DNA from: Candidatus Omnitrophota bacterium
GTDB taxonomy: Bacteria > Omnitrophota > Gorgyraeia > Duberdicusellales > 4484-171
NCBI GenBank assembly: GCA_014729775.1
Contig: WJJJ01000007.1
Coordinates: forward strand, 30,302 to 94,301
Length of the DNA stretch: 64,000 bases
Direction: 5' to 3'
Within the stretch, counting starts at the first letter, position 1. The number at the start of each line of letters is the position of its first letter. Positions 1,180 through 52,958 of this stretch are shown here, one piece after another. A model generated the notes under the pieces. It was not told where the DNA came from. It made no database searches and saw nothing but the letters and a program-made list of their open reading frames with translations. The position numbers and the translations under genes were made by a program.

Positions 1180-3033
1180 ATGAGTATACGGGTGAGAACA
1201 AAAAATCAGGAACCGCGAGGGGTTCGGGGGGTCAGGAAATACTGGTATTTCCTGAAGATGATGCAGGTTTCCCCGTGGTATTTTCTGATACAGATCGTCT
1301 CTTCTTTGTGCGTGGCAGGGTTTGACGGATTGAGTTTGGGGTTGCTCGCCCCGTTACTCAAGGGAATTATTGAGAAAGATTTTTCGTTCCTGGGCAATAT
1401 CACTGGGGTTCCCTGGCTGATGCGCGTGACCGGGATTCATATTCAGGACGTGCCCAGCCGGTTCCTTTTCCTGGGACTTGTGGGGGTTATTTTTGTTTCC
1501 GCGTTGCTCAAGAACGTGGTGTTTTATTTGTCTCAGGTATATATGGTGAAGCAGCGGGAAGGGTCCGCCTTTTATCTGAAGAATTTCGTGTTCCAGCGGT
1601 ATTTGACCTTCGGGAAATTATACCTGGATAAAATCAGCCAGGGGTATATCCAATCGGATCTCCTTTTCGCGGATCGGGTGGTCCGTCTCCTGGATGCGTT
1701 AGGGAAATTGCTGATCGCCGGGTTTACGCTGGTCGTCTATTTTTCGATCATGGTCTTTGTCGAATGGCGGCTGGCGCTGTTTGCGGTGGTAGTGTTGCCG
1801 GCACTCCATTTTTCGTTGCGGTGGTTAATTAAGAAGATCAGGCGAACGGCGCAACTTCAATCCAGAGTCGCGCTGAAGATGGGACGGCAAGTGTTCGATA
1901 TCCTTTCCGGGATCACGGTAGTGCACGCGTACAACAAGGAAGAGCCGATGTTCCGGAGATTCCGACAGATCAACGATGATATCAAACGGCATAATATCAG
2001 TCAGGATAAAAAGTTGCGAATGATCCAGCCCTTTCAGGAAGTGCTGACGATGATCGCGATCCTCTTTTTCGTTTCAGCGGTGGCGTTTATTTTTGTGACG
2101 GGCCGGGCAGGGCAGGTGTCGGAATATTTTCTGTTTCTCATTTTGGTCCGGCGGTGCGCCCCGGTGTTGATTCAGCTCAACCGGGTGAAATCAGATGTGG
2201 CGCAGCTTGACGGTCCGATGAATCGTTTGCTGAAGGTTGCGGAGGAAAAAGATAAACATGTCGTATCTTCCGGAGAAGAAGAGTTCAGCGGGATCAATTC
2301 CCACATTGAGATCCGAAATCTGAATTTTCAATACCGTCAGCATCTGCCGGTGGTCCGGGGAGTGAGCTTTACGATCCCCAAAGGGCAGATGACCGCGATC
2401 GTGGGGCCGACTGGTTCCGGGAAAACGACGTTGATCAATTTGATTATGCGGTTTTATGAGTGTCCGCCGGGGACGATTTTCCTTGACGGGAAAGATATTC
2501 GAGAGTATTCGATAGAGTCGTTGCGACGAAGTATTTCATTGGTCTCACAGGAGGTTACGTTATTTAACGATACTTTGAAAAACAATGTGCTCTTTGGGAG
2601 CCGACGGGATCAACGGCCCGGAAACGAGGAAGTACTCAGCGTATTTAAAAAAGCCCGGTTGGATGAGTTCGTCGCGAAGCTGCCGCAGGGGATACACACC
2701 GAGATCGGGGACAGGGGGGTGCGTCTCTCCGGCGGCGAGAAACAGCGGGTATCGATTGCGCGGGCGTTGCTGCGCCAGCCGGACATTATGATCTTGGATG
2801 AGGCGACCAGTTCTCTGGATACGACGACTGAACGGTTGGTTCAGGAAGCGATCGAGGAAGCGGTGAAAGGGCGTACCGCGATTGTGATCGCCCACCGGTT
2901 ATCCACCGTGAAAAACGCGGATAAGATAGTGGTCATTGAGGAAGGACGAAAGATAGAAGAAGGGCATTTGTCGGAGTTGATCGAAAGACGGGGAGCGTTT
3001 TATCATTACTGGCAGGCCCAGCGGTTTGAATAA
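1180..3033 (+). CDS. ABC transporter permease/ATP-binding fusion protein (MsbA/lipid-exporter-like)
   Basis: N-terminal 6-TM exporter domain followed by an NBD. Walker A is GPTGSGKTT, the ABC signature is LSGGEKQR and Walker B is IMILDEAT. An alternative ATG start lies at 1255/1258. Confidence 0.9.
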   Translation: MSIRVRTKNQEPRGVRGVRKYWYFLKMMQVSPWYFLIQIVSSLCVAGFDGLSLGLLAPLLKGIIEKDFSFLGNITGVPWLMRVTGIHIQDVPSRFLFLGLVGVIFVSALLKNVVFYLSQVYMVKQREGSAFYLKNFVFQRYLTFGKLYLDKISQGYIQSDLLFADRVVRLLDALGKLLIAGFTLVVYFSIMVFVEWRLALFAVVVLPALHFSLRWLIKKIRRTAQLQSRVALKMGRQVFDILSGITVVHAYNKEEPMFRRFRQINDDIKRHNISQDKKLRMIQPFQEVLTMIAILFFVSAVAFIFVTGRAGQVSEYFLFLILVRRCAPVLIQLNRVKSDVAQLDGPMNRLLKVAEEKDKHVVSSGEEEFSGINSHIEIRNLNFQYRQHLPVVRGVSFTIPKGQMTAIVGPTGSGKTTLINLIMRFYECPPGTIFLDGKDIREYSIESLRRSISLVSQEVTLFNDTLKNNVLFGSRRDQRPGNEEVLSVFKKARLDEFVAKLPQGIHTEIGDRGVRLSGGEKQRVSIARALLRQPDIMILDEATSSLDTTTERLVQEAIEEAVKGRTAIVIAHRLSTVKNADKIVVIEEGRKIEEGHLSELIERRGAFYHYWQAQRFE

Positions 3034-3052
3034 ACGGAAAGGAGAAACAGAG

Positions 3053-4771
3053 ATGGAAACGCAGCAGGGAACCAATATTATTGCGCCGTACGGAGAGACG
3101 CTCGTTGATCTGGTGGCTGCCGGCGGGGAGCGGGATGAATTGCTCGCCCGGTCGCGGGAAATGCCTTCATTGCAAGTGTCATTCCGGTCGCTTTGTGATC
3201 TGGAATTATTAGCTACTGGAGCTTTTTCGCCGGTCGATCGATTTATGAGCAGTAAAGATTATCTTCGCGTAAAAGAAGAAATGCGTCTGGCCGACGGCAC
3301 GTTCTTTCCCATCCCGGTCACGCTTCCCGCCGAAGATGTCAGCAGTTTCAAAACGGGCCGTCCGGTATGTATCCGCGGACCTCACAACGATGTCTTGGCC
3401 GTTTTGGAAGTAGAAGAAATCTATAAGTGGGACCGTGAGGACGAAGCCAGGAAGGTGTTCGGCACGACCGATTCCTACCATCCCCTCGTTGCCGAAATGG
3501 CAAGCTGGGGGAAGTACTATCTTTCGGGACCGATGAAAGTAGTGAACTTGCCGTGTCACTATGATTTTGCCGGGTTGCGCCGTACTCCCGCGCAGGTGAG
3601 AGCGTTTCTTTCGGAAATGGATGTGGCAAATGTCGTCGCATTTCAAACGAGAAATCCTCTGCACCGGGCGCACGAAGAACTTACCAAACGCGCCGCAGAG
3701 AAAATTAACGGGGCGCTCCTGCTTCATCCGGTCGTCGGGGCAACGCGTCCCGGAGATATCGATCACTTTATCCGAGTGCAGACGTACAAAGCGCTGGTGG
3801 AGAAGTATTACGACCCGCGGAAAACAGTGCTCAGCCTGCTGCCGCTGGCCATGCGGATGGCCGGTCCCCGGGAAGCGGTGTGGCACGCGATTATCCGCCG
3901 GAACTACGGAGCAAATCATTTTATCGTCGGCCGGGGGCATGCAGGCCCGGGAAAAGACTCTCATGGCCGCCCTTTTTACGGGCCTTACGACGCACAGGAG
4001 TTGATGCAGAAGGCAGAGCCCGAAATAGCGGTAAAGATGGTTGCCTTTCAGGAAATGGTGTATCTTCCGGACGAAGAACGTTTTGAAGAGCGGGCAAAAC
4101 TGGATCCTTCGGTTCGGATTCAGACCTTATCCGGCACGCAGGTAAGGAATGAATACCTGGCAAAAGGAAAATCTCTGCCGGAATGGTTTACCCGGCCGGA
4201 AGTTGCCCGGATTCTGGCGCACGCCTATCCTCCCTGTGAAGAAAAAGGGTTTTGTTTGTGGTTTACGGGCTGTCCGAGTGCGGGCAAGTCTACCATTGCT
4301 CAGATCGTGCAGGTACTGTTGAAAGAAAAAGGCAAGGAAGTGAGCATGCTTGACGGCGACGTGGTACGGACGCATCTTTCCAAGGGGCTCGGCTTTTCCC
4401 GCGAGGACCGGGATACCAATATCCTGAGGATTGGATTTGTGGCGTCGGAAATCGTCCGGCATCGCGGTACCGTGATCTGTGCCGCGGTCAGTCCGTACGA
4501 AGAAACCAGGAATCAGGTGCGGAGCATGGTCGGCGACGACCGGTTCGTGCTGGTGTTTGTCGATACTCCCCTCGAAGTCTGTGAACAGCGGGATATCAAA
4601 GGATTGTATGCCCAGGCCCGGTCGGGAAAGATTAAGGGGTTTACCGGAATCGATGATCCCTATGAACGTCCCGAAGCGCCGGATTTGCGGTTTACTACGA
4701 CCGAACAGAGTCCCGAGGAATGTGCGCGCGAAATTGTGCGGTATCTTGTCCAAAACGGATTTGTACGGTAA
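3053..4771 (+). CDS. sat: Bifunctional sulfate adenylyltransferase (ATP sulfurylase) / adenylyl-sulfate kinase (PAPS synthesis)
   Basis: The N-terminal ATP-sulfurylase motifs are QTRNPLHRAHE and GRGHAGPG. The C-terminal APS-kinase domain has the P-loop GCPSAGKST. The RBS is aaaggag 9 nt upstream of ATG 3053; the ORF tracker began at an upstream TTG (3026). Confidence 0.9.
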   Translation: METQQGTNIIAPYGETLVDLVAAGGERDELLARSREMPSLQVSFRSLCDLELLATGAFSPVDRFMSSKDYLRVKEEMRLADGTFFPIPVTLPAEDVSSFKTGRPVCIRGPHNDVLAVLEVEEIYKWDREDEARKVFGTTDSYHPLVAEMASWGKYYLSGPMKVVNLPCHYDFAGLRRTPAQVRAFLSEMDVANVVAFQTRNPLHRAHEELTKRAAEKINGALLLHPVVGATRPGDIDHFIRVQTYKALVEKYYDPRKTVLSLLPLAMRMAGPREAVWHAIIRRNYGANHFIVGRGHAGPGKDSHGRPFYGPYDAQELMQKAEPEIAVKMVAFQEMVYLPDEERFEERAKLDPSVRIQTLSGTQVRNEYLAKGKSLPEWFTRPEVARILAHAYPPCEEKGFCLWFTGCPSAGKSTIAQIVQVLLKEKGKEVSMLDGDVVRTHLSKGLGFSREDRDTNILRIGFVASEIVRHRGTVICAAVSPYEETRNQVRSMVGDDRFVLVFVDTPLEVCEQRDIKGLYAQARSGKIKGFTGIDDPYERPEAPDLRFTTTEQSPEECAREIVRYLVQNGFVR

Positions 4772-7677: not shown

Positions 7678-9444
7678 ATGAGCGGTACAAAGATGTTGAC
7701 CGATGAGATTCCGCGGTATCCCGATACGCTTCCCGGAAGCGTGTGGGGGCTTACCACGTACTATAATCCGGCTCAATACCGGAACAAACTAGCGAATTAT
7801 CGAATATTTAGAGAACGGGTTAAACGGCAGGGATTATCTCTGATCACGGTGGAAATCGCGTTCGGCCGGCGGCCGTTCGAGTTAGAGAACAGTGACGCCG
7901 AAGTCCTGATTCAGCGGCGGACACGCGGAGTGTTGTGGCAAAAAGAACGAGCGTTGAACATCGCCCTGCAGGCTCTGCCGGATGAGTGCGATAAAATTAT
8001 CTGGCTAGACGCGGATGTGCTGTTTTATGATGACCGGTGGATCGTGCGGACGTGTCGCGCGTTGCAGGAATACGTCGTTGTCCAGCCGTTTTCCTTTTTC
8101 TTCCGGCTGCCGAAAGGGTTCGAGGATTTGGAGGAATATACGCGGAGATATCCGGATGCCTGCCGCCGGATTACCGCCGGATATGGGATCGGGTACGGGA
8201 TCGCGCATTTAGGACGGGAATTTTTACGGGAAGTTTCGGTGCGGGAAGCCGGAACGGTAGGTTTTGCCTGGGCGGCGCGGCGGAGCGTATTTTCGTCCGT
8301 TGGGTTTTATGACGCTTCTCCGGTCGGAGTTGCGGATGCCGTTATGGCCTATGGATTTTACGGTGCCCAGTGCCGGCCATACCAACGCTATTGGACGGAG
8401 TCAATGAGGAGAGACCAAGCCCTTTGGACGGAGGAGATTTATCGCCGGGTGCGGGGCAGTGTGTTTTGGGTCGATGGGCGGCTGGGACATCTTTGGCACG
8501 GGGATGTAGCTTCACGGATGTACGTACGCCGGCAATCGATTGAGAAGAAATGCCGGTTCAACCCGCGTACGGATATCAAAAAAGATGCGCAAGACTGCTG
8601 GATATGGGCGACGCGTAAAAAGAAACGGTTGCGGTTCTGGGTTCGTTGGTATTTCTGGATGAGGAACGAAGAATGCAACGCGGCGGTACGGTGTCTGCGC
8701 GGGGTTACGCAGATGGGTACGTATCTGGCGAGAGTTCTGTGGGCGGCGTTTCCCCGGAGGATAAAAACGAGGTATTGGCAGGCAAAGGAACGTGTACTTT
8801 TGCGCAGAGGGAAGTTCCCCGTGCAGACCGCCGGACTGGTGTCCGGACGGTATCGGTGTCTCTATGTGGGGGTTCCGACCAGCTCCGGTTCATCGTGGAC
8901 ACAGCGTCTAGCCGGAGATCTGGGGATGAAGTTTGAACTTTTTCCGGGCTGTTCGCGGTTTTGGGCCGTGACGGATATACGTGCGCGTGAATTCCACCGG
9001 TATTTCAAATTTTGTTTCGTCCGGAATCCGTGGGAACGGGCAGCTGCCGGGTATGTGGAAAATATTCGACCATTGCCGGGGGGGCCGTACGGCCGCGGCG
9101 GTGGCGGCCGGGCATTTCCGTTTTTCCGGCCGGGGATGAGCTTCGAGGAGTTCATCAGGGTCATCCACCGTATTCCTGATTATGCCGCTGAACGATGGTT
9201 CCGTTCAAATTACGCCTGTATTTGCGATCCGCAGGGAAGGAAGGTAGTCGATTTCGTGGGCCGGTATGAACACTGGGAACGGGATTGGGCAACGGTGTAT
9301 GCGCGGCTGGGGTTGGTGAATAGGTCTGCTCCCGGTAAGGACGTCCGGTGTCCGGAGTACCGGCACTATTATAATGAAACGACCAAAGCGTTAGTGGAAC
9401 AGCGCTATCGCCGGGATATCGAGTTGTTTGGGTATGAGTTTTGA
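7678..9444 (+). CDS. Two-domain protein: N-terminal GT-A-like putative glycosyltransferase fused to a C-terminal carbohydrate sulfotransferase (Sulfotransfer_2-like) domain
   Basis: N-terminal half: WLDADVLF (DxD-like) and GHLWHGD. Middle: a Trp/Arg-rich linker. C-terminal half: a 5'-PSB-like YVGVPTSSGSSW, a 3'-PB motif FVRNPWERAAAGY, and the C-terminal Y..D..LFGYEF typical of CHST-type sulfotransferases. Confidence 0.7.
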   Translation: MSGTKMLTDEIPRYPDTLPGSVWGLTTYYNPAQYRNKLANYRIFRERVKRQGLSLITVEIAFGRRPFELENSDAEVLIQRRTRGVLWQKERALNIALQALPDECDKIIWLDADVLFYDDRWIVRTCRALQEYVVVQPFSFFFRLPKGFEDLEEYTRRYPDACRRITAGYGIGYGIAHLGREFLREVSVREAGTVGFAWAARRSVFSSVGFYDASPVGVADAVMAYGFYGAQCRPYQRYWTESMRRDQALWTEEIYRRVRGSVFWVDGRLGHLWHGDVASRMYVRRQSIEKKCRFNPRTDIKKDAQDCWIWATRKKKRLRFWVRWYFWMRNEECNAAVRCLRGVTQMGTYLARVLWAAFPRRIKTRYWQAKERVLLRRGKFPVQTAGLVSGRYRCLYVGVPTSSGSSWTQRLAGDLGMKFELFPGCSRFWAVTDIRAREFHRYFKFCFVRNPWERAAAGYVENIRPLPGGPYGRGGGGRAFPFFRPGMSFEEFIRVIHRIPDYAAERWFRSNYACICDPQGRKVVDFVGRYEHWERDWATVYARLGLVNRSAPGKDVRCPEYRHYYNETTKALVEQRYRRDIELFGYEF

Positions 9445-9476: not shown

Positions 9477-10364
9477 ATGAAGAAGATGAAAGTATCGGTA
9501 GTGATCCGCAACCGTAATGAGGCGAGGTATCTCGAGAAAATCTTATATGCACTTTCTTTGCAGCGTGTGCCCCCTGATGAAATCATCGTGGTTGATAATG
9601 CCTCCGAAGACAACAGTGCCGAAGTGGCCGCGCGCGCGCAGGCGAAGCTCGTTTCGATCGACACAAAAACGTTTACCTATGGCAGAGCGTTGAATAGGGG
9701 GATTCGGGAAGCGAGCGGCGAAATTTGTGTCGTGCTGAGCGCGCACACGCTGCCGGTGGGCAGGAATTTCATCGAAGAATGCCTAGTTCCGTTTGAAGAT
9801 GAACGCATTGCAGGGGTTCGCTGTGTTCACGGCGCCAAGCAGCGTGATCTGGAAGAATGGATTAGCCCGCAAGTGCTGCGTTCTCCCGTTGATCCTGAAA
9901 AAGTAATTGCGTACGGACCTGGATGCGGATACGCGATTCGCCGAAGCGTATGGCAGGAGATTCCGTTTGAGGAAGATCTGGAAATGATCGAGGACAAGGC
10001 CTGGGCTTGGGAAGTGCTGCGTAACGGGTATCATATCTATTCTGCGTGTCCCGCGGTGTACACTCATATTCGGCCGCGCCGAACCCTGGAAAAAATATGG
10101 CGAACGAATCAGGAAGGGCGGGCGGTATACCGGAGATTCGCCCGGCGGTTCCCGGTGCGATCCCCGATGCAAGCGATCGGGGGTATCGTTGCGGCCGTCT
10201 GCTGGCGGGCTCCCCGGGCGGCGGTGTCGGTACTCGTCACAACGATAGGGACACACATTTTTTCCTTGATGTTGCCGATTATAGCCAGGAAAAAAGCATC
10301 ACAGGGGTCGCGTCCGTTTTTCGAAGTGTCACGGAGCTGGAAGGGGAGCAAGAAGAATGAGTGA
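9477..10364 (+). CDS. Family 2 glycosyltransferase
   Basis: ATG at 9477 (the tracker began at TTG 9441). KVSVVIRNRNEARYLEKILYALSLQRVPPDEIIVVDNASEDNS is a canonical GT2 N-terminus. Confidence 0.8.
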   Translation: MKKMKVSVVIRNRNEARYLEKILYALSLQRVPPDEIIVVDNASEDNSAEVAARAQAKLVSIDTKTFTYGRALNRGIREASGEICVVLSAHTLPVGRNFIEECLVPFEDERIAGVRCVHGAKQRDLEEWISPQVLRSPVDPEKVIAYGPGCGYAIRRSVWQEIPFEEDLEMIEDKAWAWEVLRNGYHIYSACPAVYTHIRPRRTLEKIWRTNQEGRAVYRRFARRFPVRSPMQAIGGIVAAVCWRAPRAAVSVLVTTIGTHIFSLMLPIIARKKASQGSRPFFEVSRSWKGSKKNE

Positions 10365-11085
10365 CACGAAGTACCGGTGTGTCGCGATTATCCCGGCCAG
10401 AGGAGGATCGAAAGGGATCCCGCAGAAGAACCTTGTAAAATTACATCGCCGTCCGCTACTGGCCTACACGATCGAAGCCGCTCGACAGAGCGGTTTGTTC
10501 GAGAAGGTACTCGTGTCGACCGAGAATGAAAAAATCAGGCAAACGGCGCATCGCTACGGTGCGCAATCCATCTGTCGCCCGGCGAACCTTTCCGGCGACC
10601 GCGCCGCTACCGAGCCGGTGGTTCTCCATGCGCTGAACCGGCTGCGCAAAACCGAAAGATACCGGCCCGATGTCGTATTCCTTTTACAGGCGACGTCGCC
10701 GTTGCGGGACGAGGACGATATTCGCGCGGCGTATCGGCAGTTTTTGCGGCAGAAGGTCGATTCGCTCCTTTCCGTGGAAAAAAACACCGATTTCCTGTGG
10801 AAAGAGTCCCGCAGGGGACTGGCTCCGATCAATTATTCGTATTCTCGACGGCCTCGCCGACAGGATATGCCGGTGCAATTCAAGGAAAACGGGGCAATTT
10901 ACATCACGAAATACGAGATATGGATGCGGCACGGAAATCGGTTAGGCGGAAGGATCGGGTATTCGCTGATGGATCCGATGAACTCGATCGAGATCGATGT
11001 TCCGTTTGATGTCATTGTTGCCGCGGCAGCGGTGCGCCGCCGGGGAAAAATACGCAAGAAGAAAGGGGGGAGTCATGACAGATAA
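10357..11085 (+). CDS. neuA: Acylneuraminate (nonulosonate) cytidylyltransferase, CMP-sugar synthetase
   Basis: CVAIIPARGGSKGIPQKNLVKLHRRPLLAYTIEAARQS matches the CMP-NeuAc/CMP-Kdn synthetase family N-terminus. It overlaps the upstream GT2 by 8 nt. Confidence 0.85.
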   Translation: MSDTKYRCVAIIPARGGSKGIPQKNLVKLHRRPLLAYTIEAARQSGLFEKVLVSTENEKIRQTAHRYGAQSICRPANLSGDRAATEPVVLHALNRLRKTERYRPDVVFLLQATSPLRDEDDIRAAYRQFLRQKVDSLLSVEKNTDFLWKESRRGLAPINYSYSRRPRRQDMPVQFKENGAIYITKYEIWMRHGNRLGGRIGYSLMDPMNSIEIDVPFDVIVAAAAVRRRGKIRKKKGGSHDR

Positions 11086-11947
11086 AGTACAGATCGCAGA
11101 CCGATTGGTGGGGAACGGCGAATCTTGTTTTGTAGTAGCCGAGATCGGCATCAATCACAACGGAGATCTGGATGTCGCCCGGAAGCTTATCTCCGCGGCG
11201 AATCTGGCGGGATGTGATGCGGTGAAATTTCAGAAAAGAACTGTGGAAACGGTATATACCCAGGAAGAACTCGCCAAGCCGAGGGAAAATCCCTTTGGGC
11301 CGACCAACGGAGATTTGAAACGAGGGTTGGAGTTTGACCGGGAGGAGTATGCACAGATCGCCGAATATTGCAAGACAAACAATCTTGTATGGTATGCGTC
11401 TTGCTGGGACGAAGGGTCGGTTGATTTTATGGAACAATTTAATCCGCCGTGCTACAAAATAGCTTCTCCGTTGTTAACCGACGATAAATTGTTGCGGTAT
11501 CATCGGCGGTACAAACGGCCGGTGATTCTTTCTACCGGGATGAGCACAATGGATCAGATCGATCACGCTGTCGAGGTGCTGGGAACGGAAAGGCTGATTT
11601 TGCTGCATTGTACCAGCACGTATCCGGCGCAGGTAGGGGAGCTCAATCTTCGCATGATTCCGGTATTGAAACAACGGTACCGGGTGCCGGTGGGCTATTC
11701 CGGGCATGAGGTTGGACTTGCGACCAGTATCGCCGCCGTTGCGTTGGGTGCATGCATGGTAGAGAGGCATATCACGCTGGACCGGGCGATGTGGGGAAGC
11801 GATCAGGCGGCGTCGGTCGAGCCGCACGGCTTCAGCCGACTGGTGCGCGACGCGCATGTAGTTGAGCAGGCTATGGGAGACGGGCAGAAGAGGGTATACG
11901 AGAGCGAAGTCCCCATCATTAAGAAGCTGCGGCGCGTGGGGAAGTAG
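11075..11947 (+). CDS. neuB: N-acetylneuraminate synthase family protein (NeuB-like nonulosonate / 9-phosphate synthase), lacks C-terminal SAF domain
   Basis: The NeuB TIM-barrel signature CFVVAEIGINHNGDLDVARKLI...CDAVKFQK is present. The RBS is ggggggag before ATG 11075. At 290 aa it has no antifreeze-like SAF domain. Confidence 0.85.
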   Translation: MTDKVQIADRLVGNGESCFVVAEIGINHNGDLDVARKLISAANLAGCDAVKFQKRTVETVYTQEELAKPRENPFGPTNGDLKRGLEFDREEYAQIAEYCKTNNLVWYASCWDEGSVDFMEQFNPPCYKIASPLLTDDKLLRYHRRYKRPVILSTGMSTMDQIDHAVEVLGTERLILLHCTSTYPAQVGELNLRMIPVLKQRYRVPVGYSGHEVGLATSIAAVALGACMVERHITLDRAMWGSDQAASVEPHGFSRLVRDAHVVEQAMGDGQKRVYESEVPIIKKLRRVGK

Positions 11948-11967
11948 TGCAAGCGAAGCGAGGCGGG

Positions 11968-12471
11968 ATGATGGAGCAGGAAAAAAAGAAAATTCGGTTC
12001 TCCGAGGTCAAACTGTTGGTCCTGGATTTCGACGGGGTGCTTACCGATAATAATGTCTATGTATCCGAGGACGGAAAAGAATCGGTGTGTTGTTCCCGGA
12101 GCGACGGTCTGGGAATAGAAATGGTGCAGAGCCGCGGGATACCCGTGGTGGTTTTATCCAAGGAAAAGAACAAGGTCGTAAAGGCCCGGTGCCGGAAGTT
12201 ACGCGTCCGGGTCACACAGGGGATCGACGAAAAACTCAGTGAACTAAAGCGAATTGCCGCGAACGCGAATGTTTCTCCCCGGCAAGTTTGTTATTTGGGT
12301 AACGACGTTAATGACCTGGAATGCGTAGAGTTTGCGGGGGCTGGCTGTGCGGTAAATGACGCCCATCCCGCGTTGCGCAATGCGGCCGATTATGTGACCA
12401 GGAACACCGGCGGGCACGGGGCTGTCAGAGAGATTTGTGAGTGTATCCTTGAAAGAGCAGATGAGCGGTAA
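11968..12471 (+). CDS. HAD-superfamily subfamily IIIA phosphatase (KdsC / Kdn-9-phosphate phosphatase family)
   Basis: VKLLVLDFDGVLTDNNVY...LGNDVNDLECVEFAGAGCAVNDA is the YrbI/KdsC family signature. The RBS gaggcggg precedes ATG 11968; the tracker began at GTG 11947. Confidence 0.8.
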   Translation: MMEQEKKKIRFSEVKLLVLDFDGVLTDNNVYVSEDGKESVCCSRSDGLGIEMVQSRGIPVVVLSKEKNKVVKARCRKLRVRVTQGIDEKLSELKRIAANANVSPRQVCYLGNDVNDLECVEFAGAGCAVNDAHPALRNAADYVTRNTGGHGAVREICECILERADER

Positions 12472-13906
12472 TTCTTTCGACATCCCGAATATCATTCTTA
12501 TTATTCCCCGAGGGGAGGCGGTACGAAATTTCCTGTACTCCGATACCCTTGCGGTACTGAGCGCGCATGCCCGGGTTACGCTGCTCTCGATTATCGACGA
12601 TGCGCGGTTCCTTGCCCGGTTCCGTCCGGCCGCGGAAAAGATCGTGCCGTTGGTGTCTTTCCATGAGCACCGTGCCCTTGCCTATCTTCGGGGAGTCATC
12701 CAGGAAGCGCATTTTCGCTGGATGTGGAGTAAGGTTGCGCAAAACCACTGGGAAACAAAGGATGCGAGGGCTGTACGTCCGGGCGAACGGCTTAAGTGGA
12801 CTGCGCTTAAAGCGGCTGCCCGGCTGGCGGCCAATTCTCCGTCGCTCACCGCCCTTACCAGATTGGAAAATTTCCTTACCTGGGCGATGCGACCCGATGA
12901 TGCATATCGCCGGGTGTTCGAGGCGGTGAAGCCGGATATCGTGTTTAATACCTCGCAAATCCATGGTCCGGCCGGAGATCTTCCGGTGAAGATCGCTCAT
13001 CGCTGCGGGATCCCTACGGCGTGTTTTATCTTTTCCTGGGATAATCCGACGTCGCGCAGCCGTATTACCGCTCCTTATGATTACTTCTTCGTGTGGAACC
13101 GGCACATGTGCGGGCAGATTCTTTCTTTGTATCCCCAGGTGCACCGTTCACAGGTGTTCGTTACCGGAACTCCCCAGTTTGATTTTCATTTTAAGCCGGA
13201 ATTCTGGCTGGAACGCAGAGACTTGTGCCGCCGGATCGGGGCCGATCCCGACCGGCCGTTCATCCTCTATACTACGGGAATGGATCGGGATTTCCCCGAA
13301 GAACATCGTACCGTCGAATATATCGCCCGGATCTTGCATACGATCGATGTATCCCCTCGGCCGCAGTTGATTGTGCGGACATACGTGAAAGGAACGAGTC
13401 CGCAGATGAATGCTCTGGCCGGACGGCGTCTGCCCGGCGTAATTTTCCCTCCTCAGCTGTGGGATGAAAAGTGGCTGTATACGCCGCGGTATGAGGATTT
13501 AGCGGTATACACCAGTCTTTTGCGGGAGTGCAGTGCGGGCATAAATGCGGCATCAACGGTTTCCCTGGAATTGATGATGCATGATAAGCCGGTGATCAAT
13601 TTAGCATTTAATCCGCCGGGGAGTACTCTGCCGCATCATTTACGGTGGAGGCGGCACATCGAGTACGACCATTACCGGCCTGTAGCGGAAAGCGGGGCGG
13701 TTGATGTTGCACGGTTTCCGGAAGATCTGCCTGGAATGATCCGGCGGAGTATATTACATCCTGAAGCGGGGCGTGAGCAGCGGGAGCAGTTTGTCCGCCG
13801 GATGTTTGCCGATACGCTGGACGGCAAATCCGGCATACGCGTGGCGCAAAAGTTGATCTCCGTCGCCGGATCCGCACATGGGTCCAGCCGGCATGACGAT
13901 ACGTAG
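12461..13906 (+). CDS. Hypothetical soluble protein, possible GT-B-like (capsule-synthesis/CDP-glycerol-transferase-like) glycosyltransferase
   Basis: 482 aa with no TM segments and an alternating alpha/beta pattern (PDIVFNTSQIHGPAGD...FILYTTGMDRDF...). Its position directly after the CMP-nonulosonate genes suggests a transferase role. I recognise no confident motif. Confidence 0.4.
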   Translation: MSGNSFDIPNIILIIPRGEAVRNFLYSDTLAVLSAHARVTLLSIIDDARFLARFRPAAEKIVPLVSFHEHRALAYLRGVIQEAHFRWMWSKVAQNHWETKDARAVRPGERLKWTALKAAARLAANSPSLTALTRLENFLTWAMRPDDAYRRVFEAVKPDIVFNTSQIHGPAGDLPVKIAHRCGIPTACFIFSWDNPTSRSRITAPYDYFFVWNRHMCGQILSLYPQVHRSQVFVTGTPQFDFHFKPEFWLERRDLCRRIGADPDRPFILYTTGMDRDFPEEHRTVEYIARILHTIDVSPRPQLIVRTYVKGTSPQMNALAGRRLPGVIFPPQLWDEKWLYTPRYEDLAVYTSLLRECSAGINAASTVSLELMMHDKPVINLAFNPPGSTLPHHLRWRRHIEYDHYRPVAESGAVDVARFPEDLPGMIRRSILHPEAGREQREQFVRRMFADTLDGKSGIRVAQKLISVAGSAHGSSRHDDT

Positions 13907-22088: not shown

Positions 22089-23219
22089 ATGAAAGAAATG
22101 TCAATTGTCATCGTCGGTGCCGGTCCGATCGGGTGCTATGTGGGGCAGCTTTTGACCCGGCAGGGATACCGTGTCCGAATTATTGAGGAGCACAATGAGA
22201 TCGGGAAACCGGTGCATTGTGCGGGATTAATCGGGAAAAAGGTGCTGGATGAGATGCGAATCCCTTTCCCCAGGGAGAGCGTACTCAACCGTATTGACGG
22301 GGGGATTGTGCATCTCAATGGGGATTGTTTCCGTCTCCGGCGAGAAGAAGTTGCCTATGTGATCGACCGGGAAAAATTCGATAAAGCTATGGGGGCGGGA
22401 TTGAATGTGACCTATGGAACCCGGTGTGTCGGGATTGAGGAGAACGGAAGAGGGTATATTCTTGAAACTGACAGAGGAGAAATAAAAGCGGACGCGATCA
22501 TCGGTGCTGACGGCGCGCATTCTGCGGTCCGGGAATACGTGCATCAGAAAACCCCGGTCGAATATCTGAAAGGGGTACAGTTCCGGATGGAGCAGGCTCC
22601 TTCTGATATCAATATGGTGGAGATCTTTCTCAAAAAGCCTTATTTCTTCTGGAGCATCCCTGAAAATGAGAAAATCGTCCGGGTCGGGGTTCTTTCCCGG
22701 AATCCGTACTATGATCTTCTCGATTTTATCAAGGAAAGAGGTTTTCAGGGACGGGTGATCGAGAAATTCGCGGGACTTGTGCCCTTTTCGCATTTTTCCA
22801 CGTTTTCCAAAGGAAACGTATTTTTGGTGGGGGACAGCGCCGCACAAATAAAACCGTTGTCTTACGGCGGTGTCTATCTGGGGATGCGCGCTGCGGAACT
22901 TCTCGCGGATTGCCTGTGCAGTGAAAGGCATCAAGAATATTCTTCCCTGTGGAAGCGCCGTTTCGGCAGGGAACTCGCGATTACACTGAAGGCCCGCCGT
23001 TATTTTCATACGCTGAGCGAAGAAGATTTAGAACGAATATTTTTCTTCGTGAAAGATAATACTTCTCTTATAGAGGAAAAAGCCGATTTTGAAAATCACG
23101 CGGTGATGGTTTGGGAGTTCTTAAAACGGCCGAACGTATCAAAAGAAATATTGAGCATATTGCTGAAACTCGTGAAAAACAATTTTTTTCAGAATGAAGT
23201 CAATTACGCTACAAAGTAG
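22089..23219 (+). CDS. Geranylgeranyl reductase family FAD-dependent oxidoreductase
   Basis: MSIVIVGAGPIGCYVGQ...IIEEHNEIGKPVHCAGLIG is the GGR-type dinucleotide-binding fold with the PxCGG-like motif. ATG at 22089 (the tracker began upstream). Confidence 0.8.
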   Translation: MKEMSIVIVGAGPIGCYVGQLLTRQGYRVRIIEEHNEIGKPVHCAGLIGKKVLDEMRIPFPRESVLNRIDGGIVHLNGDCFRLRREEVAYVIDREKFDKAMGAGLNVTYGTRCVGIEENGRGYILETDRGEIKADAIIGADGAHSAVREYVHQKTPVEYLKGVQFRMEQAPSDINMVEIFLKKPYFFWSIPENEKIVRVGVLSRNPYYDLLDFIKERGFQGRVIEKFAGLVPFSHFSTFSKGNVFLVGDSAAQIKPLSYGGVYLGMRAAELLADCLCSERHQEYSSLWKRRFGRELAITLKARRYFHTLSEEDLERIFFFVKDNTSLIEEKADFENHAVMVWEFLKRPNVSKEILSILLKLVKNNFFQNEVNYATK

Positions 23220-24498
23220 AATTATTATTCTCTTTGTGATTTTTACCATTTTCACGATCGGCATTTTCGTCGTGATTCAGCTGTCGCATGAGTTGAATTC
23301 GGTTAACCAGGAGATTGAGTACCGGGCCCGCGCGAATTCAAATGAAGTAGAGGAGGAATTCCGGGAGATTCTTCTCCGGTTCCCGGACCGCGCGGAGGCG
23401 ATCGAAGTGATGGGTGAAAAACTCCAGGCGCTGAAAACCTCCGGGTTTCTCGAGCGTGCCTATGTGCTTGATTCTTCGGGTGAAATTGTATTCTCTACCG
23501 AGGGCTGGTTTGGAGGACAAAAGGGGAGTTTTACCGATTTTAATATACTGCAAAAATTTTTCGCGGAGGATTCGAGACGGAGAGAGGCTGTTACCGATAA
23601 AAAGAGCCGGTTACTCTCGGTGTATATCCCTCTTGACCAGGAAGATGAGTTGCGTTATTTGGTGCGGTTGTTTTTCCCTCTGGGCGATATTTGGACGGCG
23701 ATGCGGCAGGTCTATCAGCCGGCGTTTGCGGTCGGGCTGTTGTTTATCGTATTGAATGTATTGTTCGGGATATCTCTTTCCCGGGCGATTATCGGTCCGA
23801 TTAAGGTGGTAAGCGAGGCGGCAAAAAAAATCGCCGCGGGAAATCTTGATTTACGCGTACGAATGTCCACGAACGACGAGCTGGAGGAGTTGGCCAATAC
23901 GTTTAATGTGATGACAGTTGAATTAGACAAGATGAAACGACAAGCTGAGGATGCCAATCCTCTGACAAAACTTCCAGGGAACGTATTGATTCGCGAAGAG
24001 ATCGAGATGCGAATTCAAAACAAGGAAAAATTCGCGGTCGTATATTGCGACTTGGATAATTTCAAAGCGTTCAATGACAAATACGGAATCGGTAAAGGAG
24101 ATGAGGCAATCAAGCTTACCGGGGAGATTTTCAAACGGGCCGTAGAGCACAAAGGGGAATCAGATGATTTTATCGGACATGAAGGCGGGGACGATTTTTT
24201 ATTGGTATGCCGGCTTTCCCGGGTGGAAGAGGTGGCCAATTACATAATTGAAGAATTCGATGTGCGCATACGGGATTTATACGACAAAGAAGACAAAGCG
24301 CAGGGCTATATTATCGCAACGGGACGGGACGGGGTAAAGCGGCAGTTTTCCATTATGACCATTTCTCTGGCGGGAATTACGAACGGCCGCCGGGAGCTGC
24401 ACAGCTACGGTGAAATCACCAATATTGCGGCCGAAGTGAAAAAGAAAGCAAAAAACCAGGAGCGCAGCTGTTTGGTGTTTGACGAACGGACCGGGTAG
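23194..24498 (+). CDS. Membrane-bound HAMP-GGDEF domain protein (diguanylate-cyclase family; signature motif is GGDDF)
   Basis: Two TM segments flank a ~150-aa periplasmic region, then HAMP (IGPIKVVSEAAKKIAAGNLDLRV). The GGDEF domain has LTKLPGN, YCDLDNFKAFND, and GGDDF at 24184-24198 in place of GG(D/E)EF. Confidence 0.8.
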   Translation: MKSITLQSRIIILFVIFTIFTIGIFVVIQLSHELNSVNQEIEYRARANSNEVEEEFREILLRFPDRAEAIEVMGEKLQALKTSGFLERAYVLDSSGEIVFSTEGWFGGQKGSFTDFNILQKFFAEDSRRREAVTDKKSRLLSVYIPLDQEDELRYLVRLFFPLGDIWTAMRQVYQPAFAVGLLFIVLNVLFGISLSRAIIGPIKVVSEAAKKIAAGNLDLRVRMSTNDELEELANTFNVMTVELDKMKRQAEDANPLTKLPGNVLIREEIEMRIQNKEKFAVVYCDLDNFKAFNDKYGIGKGDEAIKLTGEIFKRAVEHKGESDDFIGHEGGDDFLLVCRLSRVEEVANYIIEEFDVRIRDLYDKEDKAQGYIIATGRDGVKRQFSIMTISLAGITNGRRELHSYGEITNIAAEVKKKAKNQERSCLVFDERTG

Positions 24499-24922: not shown

Positions 24923-26761
24923 ATGATGCGCCGAGTTTTCCAGCGCTCCGTGCTTACTCTGATCGTGGTTGTGGTGACAATGGGGACGTTTCTTTTTATT
25001 TATAATACCTATATGTTGGATCATTCTCTCTTTAATCTGAAGGTTTCGCTCAAACATCTGGCTACCGTGGAAAATCCCAGGGAAATGGAGGAAATCCGGC
25101 AAATCCTGGACGTTGTATTGGTCCAGGAAATTGCCCGGGATTCGTCCGACTTTTTAGCGGCGGCAAAACTGGAATTTTCCGGTCAGATTGCGGGGCGGAT
25201 GAAGCAATATCAGCAGATTCAGGATATCCGGTTTCTCTTGGGGGATATCGTGGAACAACGGGAGGAGCGACGCAATCCTTTTTTTGCTCTGCTGGACAGC
25301 ATTTTGATGAAACTCTTCCCCCATGTGCGGCAGGACCAGCCGCAGAAGATACGCGCAATGATCAGCGAAATGGAAAAGAAAATTCCCCTTTACGACGGAA
25401 TTAAGCTGCAGGCGCATTTAATCCGTCTGGCACAGATGAATATGCGTCTTCGGGAGTGGCCTGTCGCATTGGAGTTGTTGCAGCGGGCGGCTTCAGCCGG
25501 GCCGGAAAGTAAGGAGGGCCGTATCGCGAAGCTATATGTGGGAATCGTATATAAATTTACCGGAGAGTATGAGCGTGCCCGGAAAGTATTCAGCGAGCTT
25601 CGTTCGGTGTTAGAGAAAGATCTGAAAAAATACGCAATATATCAGGAAGCCCAAATCTTGTATGCAGAAGGGCGAAAGGGACAGGCCTTGCAGAAGTTAG
25701 AAGAGTTCTTTGATGATTCGCCCGGAGAAGAATTCCATCAATTCTCGCAGTTCCGGGCGGCATACGAGTATCTATACACCATACACGACCACCAGAAGGC
25801 GTATCAGTCGTTTCAAAAACTGCATGAATATGCACCCCAAAGCAAGTATGACGAATATGCGGTTACCTATCTCTATCCCCGGAATGCGGAGCCGTATGTA
25901 GAAGAAGGAGCAATTTTGTTGGATGAAGGGTATAATCTGGTGCGGTTGGCACATGAAAAAGAGGCACGCGAACGATATCAGGGTGCATTGAACCTGTTCC
26001 ACCAGGCGGTAAAAATTTGTCCGCCGGAAACCAATGATACCGTGGTGTCGATTATCGCCCGCAATTATCGGGAAACCGGATTCAAACTGGTCGAACAAGG
26101 ATATTTGTCTCAACAGGCGAACCAGAAAGCGGAAGCGACGTTGTTTTTTTCCGATGCGATCGAGAAATTTGATCTTGCAACGCAATTCTTCGACCGCGAA
26201 GCGTTAGCATACAGCGGGAAAGGACTGACGTTATTGTTTCTCGGGAAGCCGCAGGAAGCGCTGGATGCCGCGCGGGAAGCCGTCCGTCTCAATCCCGAGA
26301 ATGAAGAAACACTGGCTCATTTGGGGTATGTGTATTATCGGGTGGGAATGCTTGACGAAGCGATCGATGTGTATCGAAAATCGATGTTGGTATTACGAGA
26401 TTCTCCGCTATTGCATTATAATCTGGGGACAATGTTGGTTAAAAAAGGCAACCTTGTGGGAGCGATCGAAAATTTCAAACAGGCGATTGATGCTGATCCG
26501 AAATATTCGTACGCATATAATAACCTAGGATACATTTTGTGGGTAAAGGGCGCCTATCAGGAGGCGCAGACAAATTTGGAGCGAGCCGTGAGTTTGAGCC
26601 CCGATTATGTGGATGCCAGGTATAATCTCGGAGTCTTGTTTTTTACCATCGGAAAGTACGAACAGGCCCAGGAGCAGTTCCAAGTGATCAACCGTTTGCA
26701 TCCGGGGTTCAAAAAAAGCCAACAGTTTCTGAGAGCGATTGAAAAGAGAGCTGCACAATAA
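24923..26761 (+). CDS. TPR-repeat protein with N-terminal membrane anchor
   Basis: RBS aaggag 7 nt before ATG. An N-terminal TM (LTLIVVVVTMGTFLFIY) is followed by multiple TPR-like repeats (YNLGTMLVKKGNLVGAIENFKQAIDADPKYSYAYNNLGYI...). Confidence 0.8.
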   Translation: MMRRVFQRSVLTLIVVVVTMGTFLFIYNTYMLDHSLFNLKVSLKHLATVENPREMEEIRQILDVVLVQEIARDSSDFLAAAKLEFSGQIAGRMKQYQQIQDIRFLLGDIVEQREERRNPFFALLDSILMKLFPHVRQDQPQKIRAMISEMEKKIPLYDGIKLQAHLIRLAQMNMRLREWPVALELLQRAASAGPESKEGRIAKLYVGIVYKFTGEYERARKVFSELRSVLEKDLKKYAIYQEAQILYAEGRKGQALQKLEEFFDDSPGEEFHQFSQFRAAYEYLYTIHDHQKAYQSFQKLHEYAPQSKYDEYAVTYLYPRNAEPYVEEGAILLDEGYNLVRLAHEKEARERYQGALNLFHQAVKICPPETNDTVVSIIARNYRETGFKLVEQGYLSQQANQKAEATLFFSDAIEKFDLATQFFDREALAYSGKGLTLLFLGKPQEALDAAREAVRLNPENEETLAHLGYVYYRVGMLDEAIDVYRKSMLVLRDSPLLHYNLGTMLVKKGNLVGAIENFKQAIDADPKYSYAYNNLGYILWVKGAYQEAQTNLERAVSLSPDYVDARYNLGVLFFTIGKYEQAQEQFQVINRLHPGFKKSQQFLRAIEKRAAQ

Positions 26762-26801: not shown

Positions 26802-27377
26802 ATGCTGAAATCATTCAAGAAACATTTCTTCCGCAAGAAAGGCCGTGACCGGAGAAAATATGTCCGGTTGCGTGCGCATCATTTGCTGAAGTATAAAATT
26901 CTTTCTCCCCAAGAACATCTGACCTTTGTCCGCGATATCAGCGGCGGCGGACTCCTCTTTTTCTCGAGAGAGGATATTCCTGTGGGGAGTGTAGTGGAAC
27001 TTGCCGTTAATTTTCCCGCATCTCCCTTGCCGATTGAAGGGGTAGCCAAGGTGATCCGGACCCGGCATCTTAAAAAGATGGGCGGCTACGAGATCGCAGT
27101 CGAATTTCTCGAGCTGGACGAAGAAAACCGGGAACGGATTCAACGGCAAATAGCGTGTGTATATGAAAAAAAAGAACAAAGAAAGGGGGAGCGAATGGGC
27201 AGAGTAGCGAAAATATTCCTGGGACTCGCGATTGTCGGCGCGCTTTTCGGGACGGCAACGCGATTCTTTGATGTGAGTGTCCCGGTTGCCCCGCTCAGTT
27301 GGGTTATGTTGACCAATATGTTTTTGCTGTTCTCTATCGCGGTCACTTTGTTGGCAATTGCTCGGAAGATCAAATAG
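26802..27377 (+). CDS. PilZ-domain c-di-GMP receptor with C-terminal two-TM anchor
   Basis: Canonical PilZ motifs RKYVRLR (RxxxR) and DISGGG (DxSxGG), followed by two hydrophobic helices at the C-terminus. Confidence 0.8.
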   Translation: MLKSFKKHFFRKKGRDRRKYVRLRAHHLLKYKILSPQEHLTFVRDISGGGLLFFSREDIPVGSVVELAVNFPASPLPIEGVAKVIRTRHLKKMGGYEIAVEFLELDEENRERIQRQIACVYEKKEQRKGERMGRVAKIFLGLAIVGALFGTATRFFDVSVPVAPLSWVMLTNMFLLFSIAVTLLAIARKIK

Positions 27378-27418
27378 GTTCTTTTGAGGATATACGGGGC
27401 AGACGGAATTTTATTCGT

Positions 27419-28747
27419 ATGGGCAGGTGGATTACCACAGGAATATGCATGGTTGCGTGTGCTGTCCTTCCCGCAGCGGGATGGGGGGAAGTGACGAGGG
27501 GAGACCTTATCGACGGATATCTTAAATATTATCAGCTGGAAGAAAAAGAACGGGAAGAAAAGGAACGGCAGGAAGAGCTCCGGCGGCAAAAGGAAGAGGC
27601 TTTGATGCGGGAGCGGGAAGCCCGGCGGGATAAAAGCGAGCAACGTGCGAGAAAAATGAAAAAAGTGCTTGAGAGAGTAAAAGAGGATCTTTTGTTTGTC
27701 GCGGAACTCGAGAGTATTTATAGCGATAACGTATTTAAAACCAGCGAAGACGAAGAATCAGATTTCGTCACTTCTCTCACCCTGGGATTGAGCTACGAAC
27801 CAGAAATTGCATGGAGGAAGGGGCATACTTCGGTAAAATTCGATCTGGAAGGCGGTCCGAACATCACCATTACGGATAATGACGAGCTGAACGCGAACCG
27901 GTTCCTTGCCGCCGGTGCGGTCCAGCATGTCCGGGGGAAATACGGTGTCGGTATTGAAGGAGGCGCGGAACGGGATTTCTCTACGGCGAGCGATTTTACC
28001 CTTACGGGAGAAAAAAAGCTCGTGGAATTCTGGCGGTATCGGTACGGAGTGGAGCTGTTCGCCGACTGGGCATATCTCCCTTCCTCGCTTCAGTACACGC
28101 ACAAAACAACCGAACACGACGGAGAGTTTTCTGCGGCGGATTTAGACGAGGACGTCATTGAATTGACGACGAAAGTGAACGTTTTCCCCAAGACCGGAAT
28201 TAAATTTGACTATCAATATGGTTCTGACGAATATCCGAACCGCGGAAATAAAGACGGTACGTATCATTCGTTTCAACTCGGGCTGTCCGGAAAGATTTCG
28301 CCGAAGATCAAAGGGGATATCCTTGGAGGCATCAAGCAGAGAGAAATCGATGACGGCAGCGATGTCGAAGAAACTACGACGACGGTGGACCTTGTGTATG
28401 ATATCTCCGAACATCTGAGCGCCGCCTTCGAAGCAAGCCGGGATGTCTCCGCGACGGCGGTCATCGGAGAATCTTGGAGCAAAGACTGGGAGATCATTCT
28501 GGGGCTGGAATACCGGCCGCCGTTCAACCGAAGGTTAACCATGTTCGCCGGAGGGGAATATAAGAGTTCAGAGTATTCTTCCGCCCGGGAAGACGAATAT
28601 CTTGAGCTGTCTTTGCGGTCACGGCTCGCGTTGAATCAATGGCTTTCCTGTGAAGGTGCATATACGTTCGAAGACAGGACCTCGAACACTGCCCTGGCCG
28701 AATACACGCAAAACGAAATTACGCTGTCACTCACCGCGGAGTTTTAA
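27419..28747 (+). CDS. Putative outer-membrane beta-barrel protein with N-terminal charged coiled-coil region
   Basis: Signal peptide (MGRWITTGICMVACAVLPAAG), a K/E/R-rich low-complexity stretch, then alternating amphipathic beta-strand pattern. The C-terminus ...ITLSLTAEF ends in Phe, the OMP signature. Confidence 0.6.
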   Translation: MGRWITTGICMVACAVLPAAGWGEVTRGDLIDGYLKYYQLEEKEREEKERQEELRRQKEEALMREREARRDKSEQRARKMKKVLERVKEDLLFVAELESIYSDNVFKTSEDEESDFVTSLTLGLSYEPEIAWRKGHTSVKFDLEGGPNITITDNDELNANRFLAAGAVQHVRGKYGVGIEGGAERDFSTASDFTLTGEKKLVEFWRYRYGVELFADWAYLPSSLQYTHKTTEHDGEFSAADLDEDVIELTTKVNVFPKTGIKFDYQYGSDEYPNRGNKDGTYHSFQLGLSGKISPKIKGDILGGIKQREIDDGSDVEETTTTVDLVYDISEHLSAAFEASRDVSATAVIGESWSKDWEIILGLEYRPPFNRRLTMFAGGEYKSSEYSSAREDEYLELSLRSRLALNQWLSCEGAYTFEDRTSNTALAEYTQNEITLSLTAEF

Positions 28748-30088: not shown

Positions 30089-30094
30089 GGAACG

Positions 30095-52929: not shown

Positions 52930-52958
52930 GTGAACTTTTACAACGAAAAGGAGGGAAT

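Follow-up and report, generated by a model that had tools for sequence, protein, structure and literature searches.

Can a single bacterial protein attach a sugar to a growing glycan and then decorate the product with sulfate? This question is raised by an open reading frame (ORF) at positions 7678-9444 of the forward strand in a stretch of 64,000 nucleotides from a Candidatus Omnitrophota bacterium (GenBank assembly GCA_014729775.1, contig WJJJ01000007.1, positions 30,302 to 94,301), hereafter called the window. An earlier inspection of the letters alone (the sequence-only reading) had proposed that this ORF fuses a GT-A-like glycosyltransferase domain to a carbohydrate sulfotransferase domain of the Sulfotransfer_2 type, next to a dedicated synthase of the sulfate donor 3'-phosphoadenosine 5'-phosphosulfate (PAPS), and that an enzyme adding a sugar and then a sulfate was undescribed in bacteria. 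In our analysis, both halves have the folds that were expected of them, and the sulfotransferase-like half has lost four conserved polar residues. We give an even chance to the reading that the protein is a two-module tailoring protein of a surface polysaccharide or exopolysaccharide, in which the sulfotransferase fold is retained and canonical catalysis is lost or strongly impaired.

One open reading frame with two modules

The ORF is intact. Its start codon is ATG, with a GAGGA motif 10-14 nt ahead of it, and it encodes 588 amino acids (aa) followed by a stop codon. The product is identical over its full length (100% identity) to an NCBI entry from a Candidatus Omnitrophica metagenome-assembled genome (MAG), namely hypothetical protein GF333_01600 (P0001). 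All motifs quoted in the sequence-only reading were located in this one continuous frame, as it had claimed: WLDADVLF (D111, D113), GHLWHGD (H271, H274), GVPTSSGSSW, FVRNPWERAAAGY (R449) and the C-terminal DIELFGYEF. The sole Pfam family found in the protein is Sulfotransfer_2 (PF03567), at aa 434-587. The N-terminal module (aa 1-332, 7678-8673) is a GT-A fold glycosyltransferase module of a widespread family for which neither Pfam nor NCBIfam has a model, and the Sulfotransfer_2-like module (Met346-Phe588, 8713-9441) is, with 243 aa, the size of standalone bacterial homologues. A combined full-length MAFFT alignment put sulfotransferase homologues on the N-terminal half (12-23% identity), and the two halves were modelled separately.

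A sulfotransferase fold without key canonical residues

The C-terminal module matches PF03567 with an E-value of 3.4e-11 and 44.2 bits, against a gathering cut-off of 22. In the structure model and in structural comparison, it has the sulfotransferase alpha/beta fold with a central beta-sheet; two N-terminal helices (aa 342-376) precede the sulfotransferase core (aa 387-588). Its assignment to Sulfotransfer_2 was therefore correct. The match, however, covers only profile positions 74-252 of 252; the unmatched positions 1-73 include the 5'-phosphosulfate-binding (PSB) element. Its score of 44-48 bits compares with 67-105 bits in ten fused Sulfotransfer_2 relatives. The closest canonical relative, the standalone protein P0121, is about 40% identical to the module.

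To place individual residues, 188 Sulfotransfer_2 domains from two database searches were aligned to the family profile. In the column of the PSB lysine, 137 domains have Lys, four have Arg and one has Thr. The Thr is T401 of our protein (codon ACC, 8878-8880), which stands in place of the catalytic Lys in the loop P400-TSSGSS-W407 (8875-8898) and is the sole non-basic residue in the column; BLASTP alignments to P0121 and P0244 agree on its placement. The 3'-phosphate-binding (PB) motif, R449-NPWERAA-A457 (9022-9048), maps onto RNPxDxxVS of solved SULT structures. Its Arg is present in 184 of 184 domains and is kept here as R449, whereas its Ser (S in 179, A in three, D in one and T in one) is replaced by A457. 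Beyond this motif, the subfamily reads H-F-R-S-Q, with the His conserved at 89% and the Gln at 95%, and our protein reads W507-FRS-N511 (9196-9210); the alignments to P0121 and P0244 show the same two replacements. The sequence-only reading had rightly pointed to the missing Lys in GVPTSSGSSW, and the losses at A457, W507 and N511 come in addition to it.

These losses are exceptional in combination. The five positions (K/R, S/T, H, Q and R) are all covered in 140 domains, of which 122 are complete; one residue is lost in 11 domains and two in six, the Lys and the Ser never being among the two, and our protein alone loses four. It deviates at six of the 30 columns that are at least 80% conserved in the 188 domains, and four of these six are the polar K, S, H and Q. 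No conserved aromatic or hydrophobic core position is changed, and R449, N450, P451, R454, E531 and D580 are retained as well. The change from Lys to Thr requires two base changes and that from His to Trp three, so they are not single sequencing errors, and we take them to be of long standing, in a domain that still conserves its core.

A 2024 review defines PAPS sulfotransferases by the PSB Lys/Arg, the Ser of the PB helix and the beta-sheet, and describes the PSB Lys (Arg in Stf0) as stabilizing the transition state (PMC11625862). Our protein lacks two of these defining residues, the PSB Lys/Arg and the PB Ser, and has the 3'-PB Arg. The replacements T401, A457, W507 and N511 make canonical transfer of sulfate from PAPS unlikely or weak. 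The proposal that the protein adds a sugar and then a sulfate is thus undermined, although possible.

One further candidate was dropped. G424 had appeared to replace a catalytic-base His that is 90% conserved in a small alignment, but with the 188 domains the column is poorly aligned and only 66% His (99/149). This is in agreement with the review, which locates the catalytic His of PF03567 in a non-conserved region (PMC11625862).

The glycosyltransferase module and its unnamed family

The N-terminal half is far less visible to existing family models. Residues 1-330 match no Pfam family even at E<=10, and hence no family of GT2 or GT7 type; the N-terminal 330 aa match no NCBIfam model; and in the PDB neither the whole protein nor the profile of the N-terminal family found sequence matches above chance level. 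A profile built from its own homologues, on the other hand, recognizes it with an E-value of about 1e-127. The structure model of the module is of high confidence, and structural comparison shows a GT-A fold, that is, a single Rossmann-like alpha/beta/alpha unit, as the sequence-only reading had supposed. The structural neighbours, which align over 180-200 residues at 12-14% identity, are the inverting GT-A enzymes K4CP of Escherichia coli K4 (2z86), human B4GALNT1 (9h6j), SpsA of Bacillus subtilis (1h7l) and Drosophila beta4GalT7 (3lw6). At the level of sequence motifs, the module shares with such GT2/GT7/GT12-type enzymes a DxD, an Asp conserved within a Gly-rich stretch, and conserved C-terminal His residues; it differs from them in the low identity, in a signature of its own and in an extra C-terminal helix.

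This signature consists of WQKERLLN, CDKVAWLDADxxF, HLWHG and CWxW...YFxxRxE. In an alignment of 34 family members, 26 positions are invariant, and all 26 are present in our protein, including D111, D113, G217, D220, H271-L-W273-H274-G275, W310 and R329. The DxD motif (D111-A-D113, codons GAC GCG GAT, 8008-8016) directly follows strand 104-110 of the model, as the DxD follows the fourth beta-strand, and by analogy with GT-A enzymes in general D111 and D113 are predicted to bind the nucleotide-sugar and a metal. The GGED/ED motif of GT2 and GT7 enzymes suggests, by analogy, D220 (8335-8337), in the motif G217-x-x-D220, as a candidate for the catalytic base, and the His residues of H271-L-W-H274-G275 (8488-8502) are candidate C-terminal metal ligands. 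Taking the structural neighbours together with the DxD and His motifs, we predict that the module is an active, metal-dependent and probably inverting glycosyltransferase.

The stretch at aa 308-330, WIWATRKKKRLRFWVRWYFWMRN (8599-8667), had been described as an unusual Trp/Arg-rich amphipathic linker between the halves. It is instead the conserved last strand and helix of the GT-A domain. It matches the family consensus CWxWxSxKPxLHxxVRxYFxxRxE. Across the 34 members, W310 and R329 do not vary, and K315, L318, Y325 and F326 reach a conservation of at least 90%. In the model, residues 308-310 form a strand and residues 316-328 a helix, with a predicted local distance difference test (pLDDT) score of 92-98. 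The stretch is more basic and aromatic in our protein than is the norm in the family. The true junction lies at aa 333-345.

A homologue search over 5.8 billion proteins gave 450 matches, which cover only about 55% of the query, its N-terminal part. Many of these homologues are standalone proteins of 320-400 aa, and others are fused. According to the precomputed Pfam annotation of the top 120 clusters, the fusion partners are GT2/Glyco_transf_7C (seven clusters), Methyltransf_24 (four), Glyco_transf_64 (four), GT8 (one) and Sulfotransfer_3 (24, one of which carries Sulfotransfer_1 too). Counting one genome per GTDB species, the GT-A family has at least 461 confirmed loci. Its hosts include Omnitrophota, groups of the candidate phyla radiation (CPR), DPANN archaea, Methanomicrobiales, Acidobacteriota, Gemmatimonadota, Planctomycetota, Myxococcota, Proteobacteria, Cyanobacteria and others; of these, the CPR and DPANN groups have small genomes. 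The family often occurs in two copies, with 99 domain-bearing ORFs across 79 genome loci (L006-L084), and two domains stand in tandem inside one protein in P0002 and P0003.

Members of the family are found in glycan gene clusters, frequently beside ABC transporters; in 20 of the 79 loci, the distance to an ABC homologue is at most 6 kb. For example, P0025 is encoded directly upstream of wzm and wzt (the latter with a Wzt_C domain), P0088 adjoins a fused ABC exporter and a GT2 gene, and P0049 neighbours GT2, Branch, Galactosyl_T and GT9 genes as well as wzm/wzt. The idea that the family is generally tied to sulfation was rejected: within 6 kb on each side of the 79 loci, there were no Sulfotransfer_2 genes, no Sat/CysC genes and one Sulfotransfer_3 gene.

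Anatomy of the junction

Where the two modules meet, the sequence has the look of two genes. Standalone members of the GT-A family mostly stop shortly past the conserved Arg (R329): of 122 family domains, 44 have their end 3-5 residues beyond it, and P0023 and P0025 stop exactly in the column of Cys333. The codon of Cys333, TGC (8674-8676), is one base from TGA and lies at most one residue from the commonest end of the family. It is followed by an in-frame spacer of 36 nt (aa 334-345, 8677-8712), which is probably a former intergenic region and which holds a weak GGGG run 9-12 nt ahead of the ATG at 8713; other genes of the window are preceded by GAGGA or GAGGAGG. The ATG encodes Met346, where the BLASTP alignment with P0244 starts exactly (MGTYLARVL against MGATATRVL), and Met346-Phe588 has the same length as P0121 (243 aa). 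Taken together, the joining of two adjacent genes through the loss of one stop codon is most likely, as the simplest reading.

The architecture appears to be unique. Of 297 fetched proteins, ours is the sole one in which a GT-A module of this family and a Sulfotransfer_2 module occur together. The best non-self match to the C-terminal module in 1.84 billion representative proteins has an E-value of 2.5e-35, and the junction pattern, with N at the critical base, was not found in JGI metagenomes. The ORF of the fused enzyme proposed in the sequence-only reading is continuous in the given sequence; the fusion is a singleton, and its join rests on a single sense codon in place of the stop of its homologues.

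A parallel clade with the opposite domain order

The same GT-A module has met a sulfotransferase-like partner elsewhere. In a clade of proteins of about 700 aa, a Sulfotransfer_3-like domain stands in front of it (P0053, P0067, P0068, P0072-P0076, P0079, P0083, P0087, P0088, P0091-P0097, P0105, P0108, P0109 and P0118); the clade makes up about 24 clusters among the top 120 matches. Its PSB reads GxPFSG in 21 of the 23 members examined, the motif not being located in two whose listed sequences begin further along. The Phe of GxPFSG aligns with the Arg of TPST and the OLS sulfotransferase, and the position of the 3'-PB Ser is mostly His, Thr or Pro where the motif can be located. Judged by these residues, the clade may be a family of non-canonical or inactive sulfotransferase-like domains. 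It resembles our protein in pairing the same GT-A module with a domain of sulfotransferase fold whose PSB has no basic residue and whose PB Ser is mostly absent, and it differs in its reversed domain order, its other sulfotransferase family, an intervening region of about 150 aa, and in being a conserved clade rather than a singleton. As a parallel case, it supports the reading in which our protein has lost canonical catalysis.

Comparison with known enzymes and fusions

Golgi enzymes of the PF03567 family have a signal-anchor and a stem, which our protein does not. With the carbohydrate sulfotransferases of this family, such as HNK-1ST/CHST10, the chondroitin 4-sulfotransferases and heparan sulfate 2-O-sulfotransferase (3f5f), it shares the Pfam match, the fold and the Arg-x-Pro of the 3'-PB, and the C-terminal motif Y..D.ELFGY.F is common to it and to the bacterial standalone relatives of 200-245 aa (e.g., P0121). 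It differs from PF03567 enzymes in the absence of the PSB Lys/Arg, the PB Ser and the H/Q pair, and in being fused behind a glycosyltransferase. A two-module glycan-tailoring enzyme of another kind, the deacetylase-sulfotransferase, is among the structural matches and likewise has a C-terminal sulfotransferase domain, but there the partner is a deacetylase and the domain is of the Sulfotransfer_1 type (PF00685, PMC11625862) with a catalytic Lys.

Fusions of glycosyltransferases with sulfotransferases are frequent in public sequence data. They include GT2 with Sulfotransfer_2 (P0151, P0217 and P0280), GT4 with Sulfotransfer_2 (P0158 and P0181) and Caps_synth with Sulfotransfer_2 (P0243), and fusions of an ABC ATPase with Sulfotransfer_2 occur likewise. 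P0075 joins Sulfotransfer_1 to the same GT-A module as in our protein, with the Sulfotransfer_1 domain ahead of it, whereas in most other fusions the sulfotransferase is C-terminal; except in P0075, the glycosyltransferase belongs to a different family from ours. The canonical PSB Lys and PB Ser are visible in P0158, P0243 and P0280, and P0075 keeps the Lys and Ser of Sulfotransfer_1. The description of such a fusion as new to bacteria therefore applies at most to the experimental literature, in which we found no characterized bacterial example.

The gene cluster around the open reading frame

The ORF lies in a co-directional cluster of polysaccharide biosynthesis genes (1180-22031, forward strand), which was delineated from Pfam and NCBIfam matches. 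Three genes upstream of it, at 3026-4771 on the same strand, is a gene for a bifunctional sulfate adenylyltransferase/adenosine 5'-phosphosulfate (APS) kinase, that is, a PAPS synthase (NF004040, 809 bits against a cut-off of 669; Pfam PUA_2, ATP-sulfurylase and APS_kinase). The dedicated PAPS synthase of the sequence-only reading is therefore real. The cluster opens with an MsbA/HepA/PglK-like ABC exporter, followed by the PAPS synthase, Gmd, Fcl, a GT2, our ORF and another GT2. It continues with a CMP-sugar cytidylyltransferase, a NeuB-like synthase, a HAD phosphatase, a 489-aa protein, a GT2, a methyltransferase and two GT4, and closes with a Wzy_C protein, a GT4, a GT2 and a Bac_transf initiating transferase, so that it holds four GT2 and three GT4 in total. 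No second sulfotransferase-like ORF was found in the 64-kb window, either by Pfam on the main ORFs (including 49 further forward-strand ORFs, all at the default cut-off or a more stringent one) or by the Sulfotransfer_2 profile and Sulfotransfer_1/Sulfotransfer_3 phmmer searches over all 553 six-frame ORFs.

Several neighbouring genes bear on the composition of the glycan. Gmd and Fcl provide the synthesis of GDP-fucose, and the PseF-like CMP-sugar cytidylyltransferase, the NeuB-like synthase and the small HAD phosphatase (10357-12471) adjoin them; fucose and a nonulosonic acid are probable constituents of the glycan. As listed, the ORFs of the cytidylyltransferase and of NeuB share 89 nt, so the start of NeuB is probably further downstream. 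The 489-aa ORF (12437-13906) has no Pfam match and a weak NCBIfam match to a BFO_1060-family glycosyltransferase (E 1e-10, aa 158-286); by its position, it may encode the nonulosonic acid transferase. Downstream of the cluster are GGDEF, PilZ, beta-barrel, Wza-like and Wzc-like proteins and a second Wzy_C protein. A HAMP-GGDEF gene (23194-24498), a TPR gene (24923-26761) and a PilZ gene (26802-27377) stand between the glycosyltransferase cluster and the Wza/Wzc-like export genes (27299-33231), and this placement of GGDEF and PilZ genes beside export genes suggests that the polysaccharide is under cyclic di-GMP control.

Clusters of a comparable kind are known from other bacteria. The cluster for synechan (xss) and other cyanobacterial clusters for sulfated exopolysaccharides, as well as wps-1 of Actinoplanes, likewise combine glycosyltransferases and sulfotransferase-family genes with Wzy/Wza/Wzc-type machinery (PMC8205485, PMC13390465). 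In the parts of these two reports that we consulted, the sulfotransferases are separate genes, and neither a fusion nor a PAPS synthase within the cluster is mentioned; the host here, moreover, is an Omnitrophota bacterium. The locus of P0121 has a simpler layout, with the order wzm, wzt, Methyltransf_24 and Sulfotransfer_2 (loci L086 and L087, 106-3759) and a weak Wzt_C match in the wzt. It resembles the chain-terminator arrangement of ABC-transporter-dependent O-antigen clusters and, by this analogy, suggests that sulfate may serve as a terminal cap in some pathways.

Two observations concern the window at large. Nearly all credible genes in it (1-64000) are on the forward strand, and the GC skew is positive in every 2-kb segment, with a cumulative value that climbs steadily to 4.49, which is consistent with one long leading-strand stretch. 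Two ORFs, one on the reverse strand (50719-53031, 770 aa) and one on the forward strand (50866-52929, 687 aa, no Pfam match), overlap almost fully.

What the fused protein may do

The reading to which we give an even chance can be set out as follows. The stop codon between two neighbouring genes would have been lost, yielding the fused ORF. Module 1 (aa 1-332) would add one sugar from a nucleotide-sugar to a growing lipid-linked glycan, presumably on the cytoplasmic side of the membrane. Module 2 (aa 346-588), a divergent Sulfotransfer_2 domain, would transfer no sulfate from PAPS in the canonical manner, or only weakly, and would be kept for a non-catalytic or altered role, our best guess being the binding of PAPS, of 3'-phosphoadenosine 5'-phosphate (PAP) or of the glycan. 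Atypical residual sulfotransferase activity of module 2 is nearly as likely as such a role. If catalysis is indeed lost, a retained non-catalytic role is more likely than simple decay, because nothing interrupts the ORF and the losses fall mainly on polar positions.

The gene context weighs against this reading. With a PAPS synthase in the same co-directional cluster and no other sulfotransferase-like ORF in the 64 kb searched (of a 170-kb contig), the simplest reading of the context is that module 2 is the working sulfotransferase, which conflicts with its active-site losses. The protein itself adds further points. The Ser/Gly-rich PSB loop (PTSSGSS) could still bind phosphate, and it is possible that a basic residue elsewhere compensates for the lost Lys. 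The catalytic-base His of PF03567 falls in a non-conserved region; the model is weakest at aa 422-430 (pLDDT <50); and the domain is represented by a single sequence of this kind.

These points lead to the strongest rival, a fully functional bifunctional enzyme in which the GT-A module adds a sugar, the C-terminal module sulfates that sugar or a neighbouring one with PAPS, and another residue replaces the PSB Lys. We regard it as a serious possibility, though one that falls short of even. Besides the PAPS synthase and the lack of any other sulfotransferase-like domain in the window, it is favoured by the intact ORF, by the conserved fold, RNP motif and C-terminal motifs, by the fusions with canonical residues elsewhere, which show that the two activities are often coupled, and by the precedent of a varied PSB in Stf0, which has Arg instead of Lys (PMC11625862). 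Yet every relative among the 142 aligned has a basic PSB residue, the joint loss of four conserved polar residues is unique in the family, and the Pfam match both skips the PSB and scores below the ten fused relatives; a stable alternative mechanism, moreover, would predict a conserved clade, and our protein is a singleton. It is unlikely that the organism has two separate genes, one for a 332-aa GT-A protein and one for a 243-aa sulfotransferase-like protein, with the TGC being a consensus error or a minor strain variant of TGA in the MAG. Such a pair would fit the place of the TGC at the stop of P0023 and P0025, one base from TGA, as well as the spacer with its GGGG run and ATG, the size of each half, which is that of standalone relatives, and an architecture unique among the fetched proteins; but the spacer is in frame and free of stops, the Shine-Dalgarno-like run is weak beside those of other genes in the window, fusions of this GT-A module with other tailoring domains are very common, so that a fusion is not implausible, and substitution errors in an assembled consensus are uncommon. 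Very unlikely, in our view, is that the sulfotransferase-like part is a functionless, decaying remnant, with the GT-A gene reading through into a dying downstream gene. The lost catalytic residues and the singleton architecture would suit decay, whereas 243 codons are open without frameshift or stop, 24 of the 30 highly conserved positions are kept, including the whole hydrophobic core, the losses are clustered on polar residues rather than scattered, and the domain still models as a sulfotransferase fold.

A broader idea takes in both the Sulfotransfer_2-like module of our protein and the GxPFSG modules. In ABC-transporter-linked polysaccharide pathways, sulfotransferase-fold modules without the PSB Lys/Arg might be recurrent, selected partners of the GT-A module, acting not as sulfotransferases but as sensors of PAPS/PAP or as readers of an anionic glycan cap, and thereby coupling the attachment of a terminal sugar to whether the chain is sulfated or exported. 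We consider this idea rather doubtful.

Significance for Omnitrophota and for the glycosyltransferase family

Glycosyltransferase-sulfotransferase fusions are not rare in sequence data, the fusion described here is a singleton that hangs on a single codon, and it is uncertain whether the enzyme sulfates anything. The outcome would matter in either case. An active C-terminal module would mean a sulfotransferase that works without the Lys/Arg and Ser by which the superfamily is now defined, and it would point to the synthesis of sulfated polysaccharide in Omnitrophota. An inactive one would, alongside the GxPFSG clade, exemplify a pseudo-sulfotransferase module in the glycan synthesis of prokaryotes. 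A polysaccharide cluster bearing a PAPS synthase in Omnitrophota is of some interest in itself, because bacterial sulfated polysaccharides are described as essentially cyanobacterial in the reports on synechan (PMC8205485) and, in 2026, on Actinoplanes (PMC13390465). We consider the most durable results to be the large unannotated GT-A family and its recurrent sulfotransferase-like partners without canonical catalytic residues. A GT-A family of this size, with neither a Pfam or NCBIfam model nor a sequence-related solved structure, merits a family definition and the assignment of its donors and acceptors.

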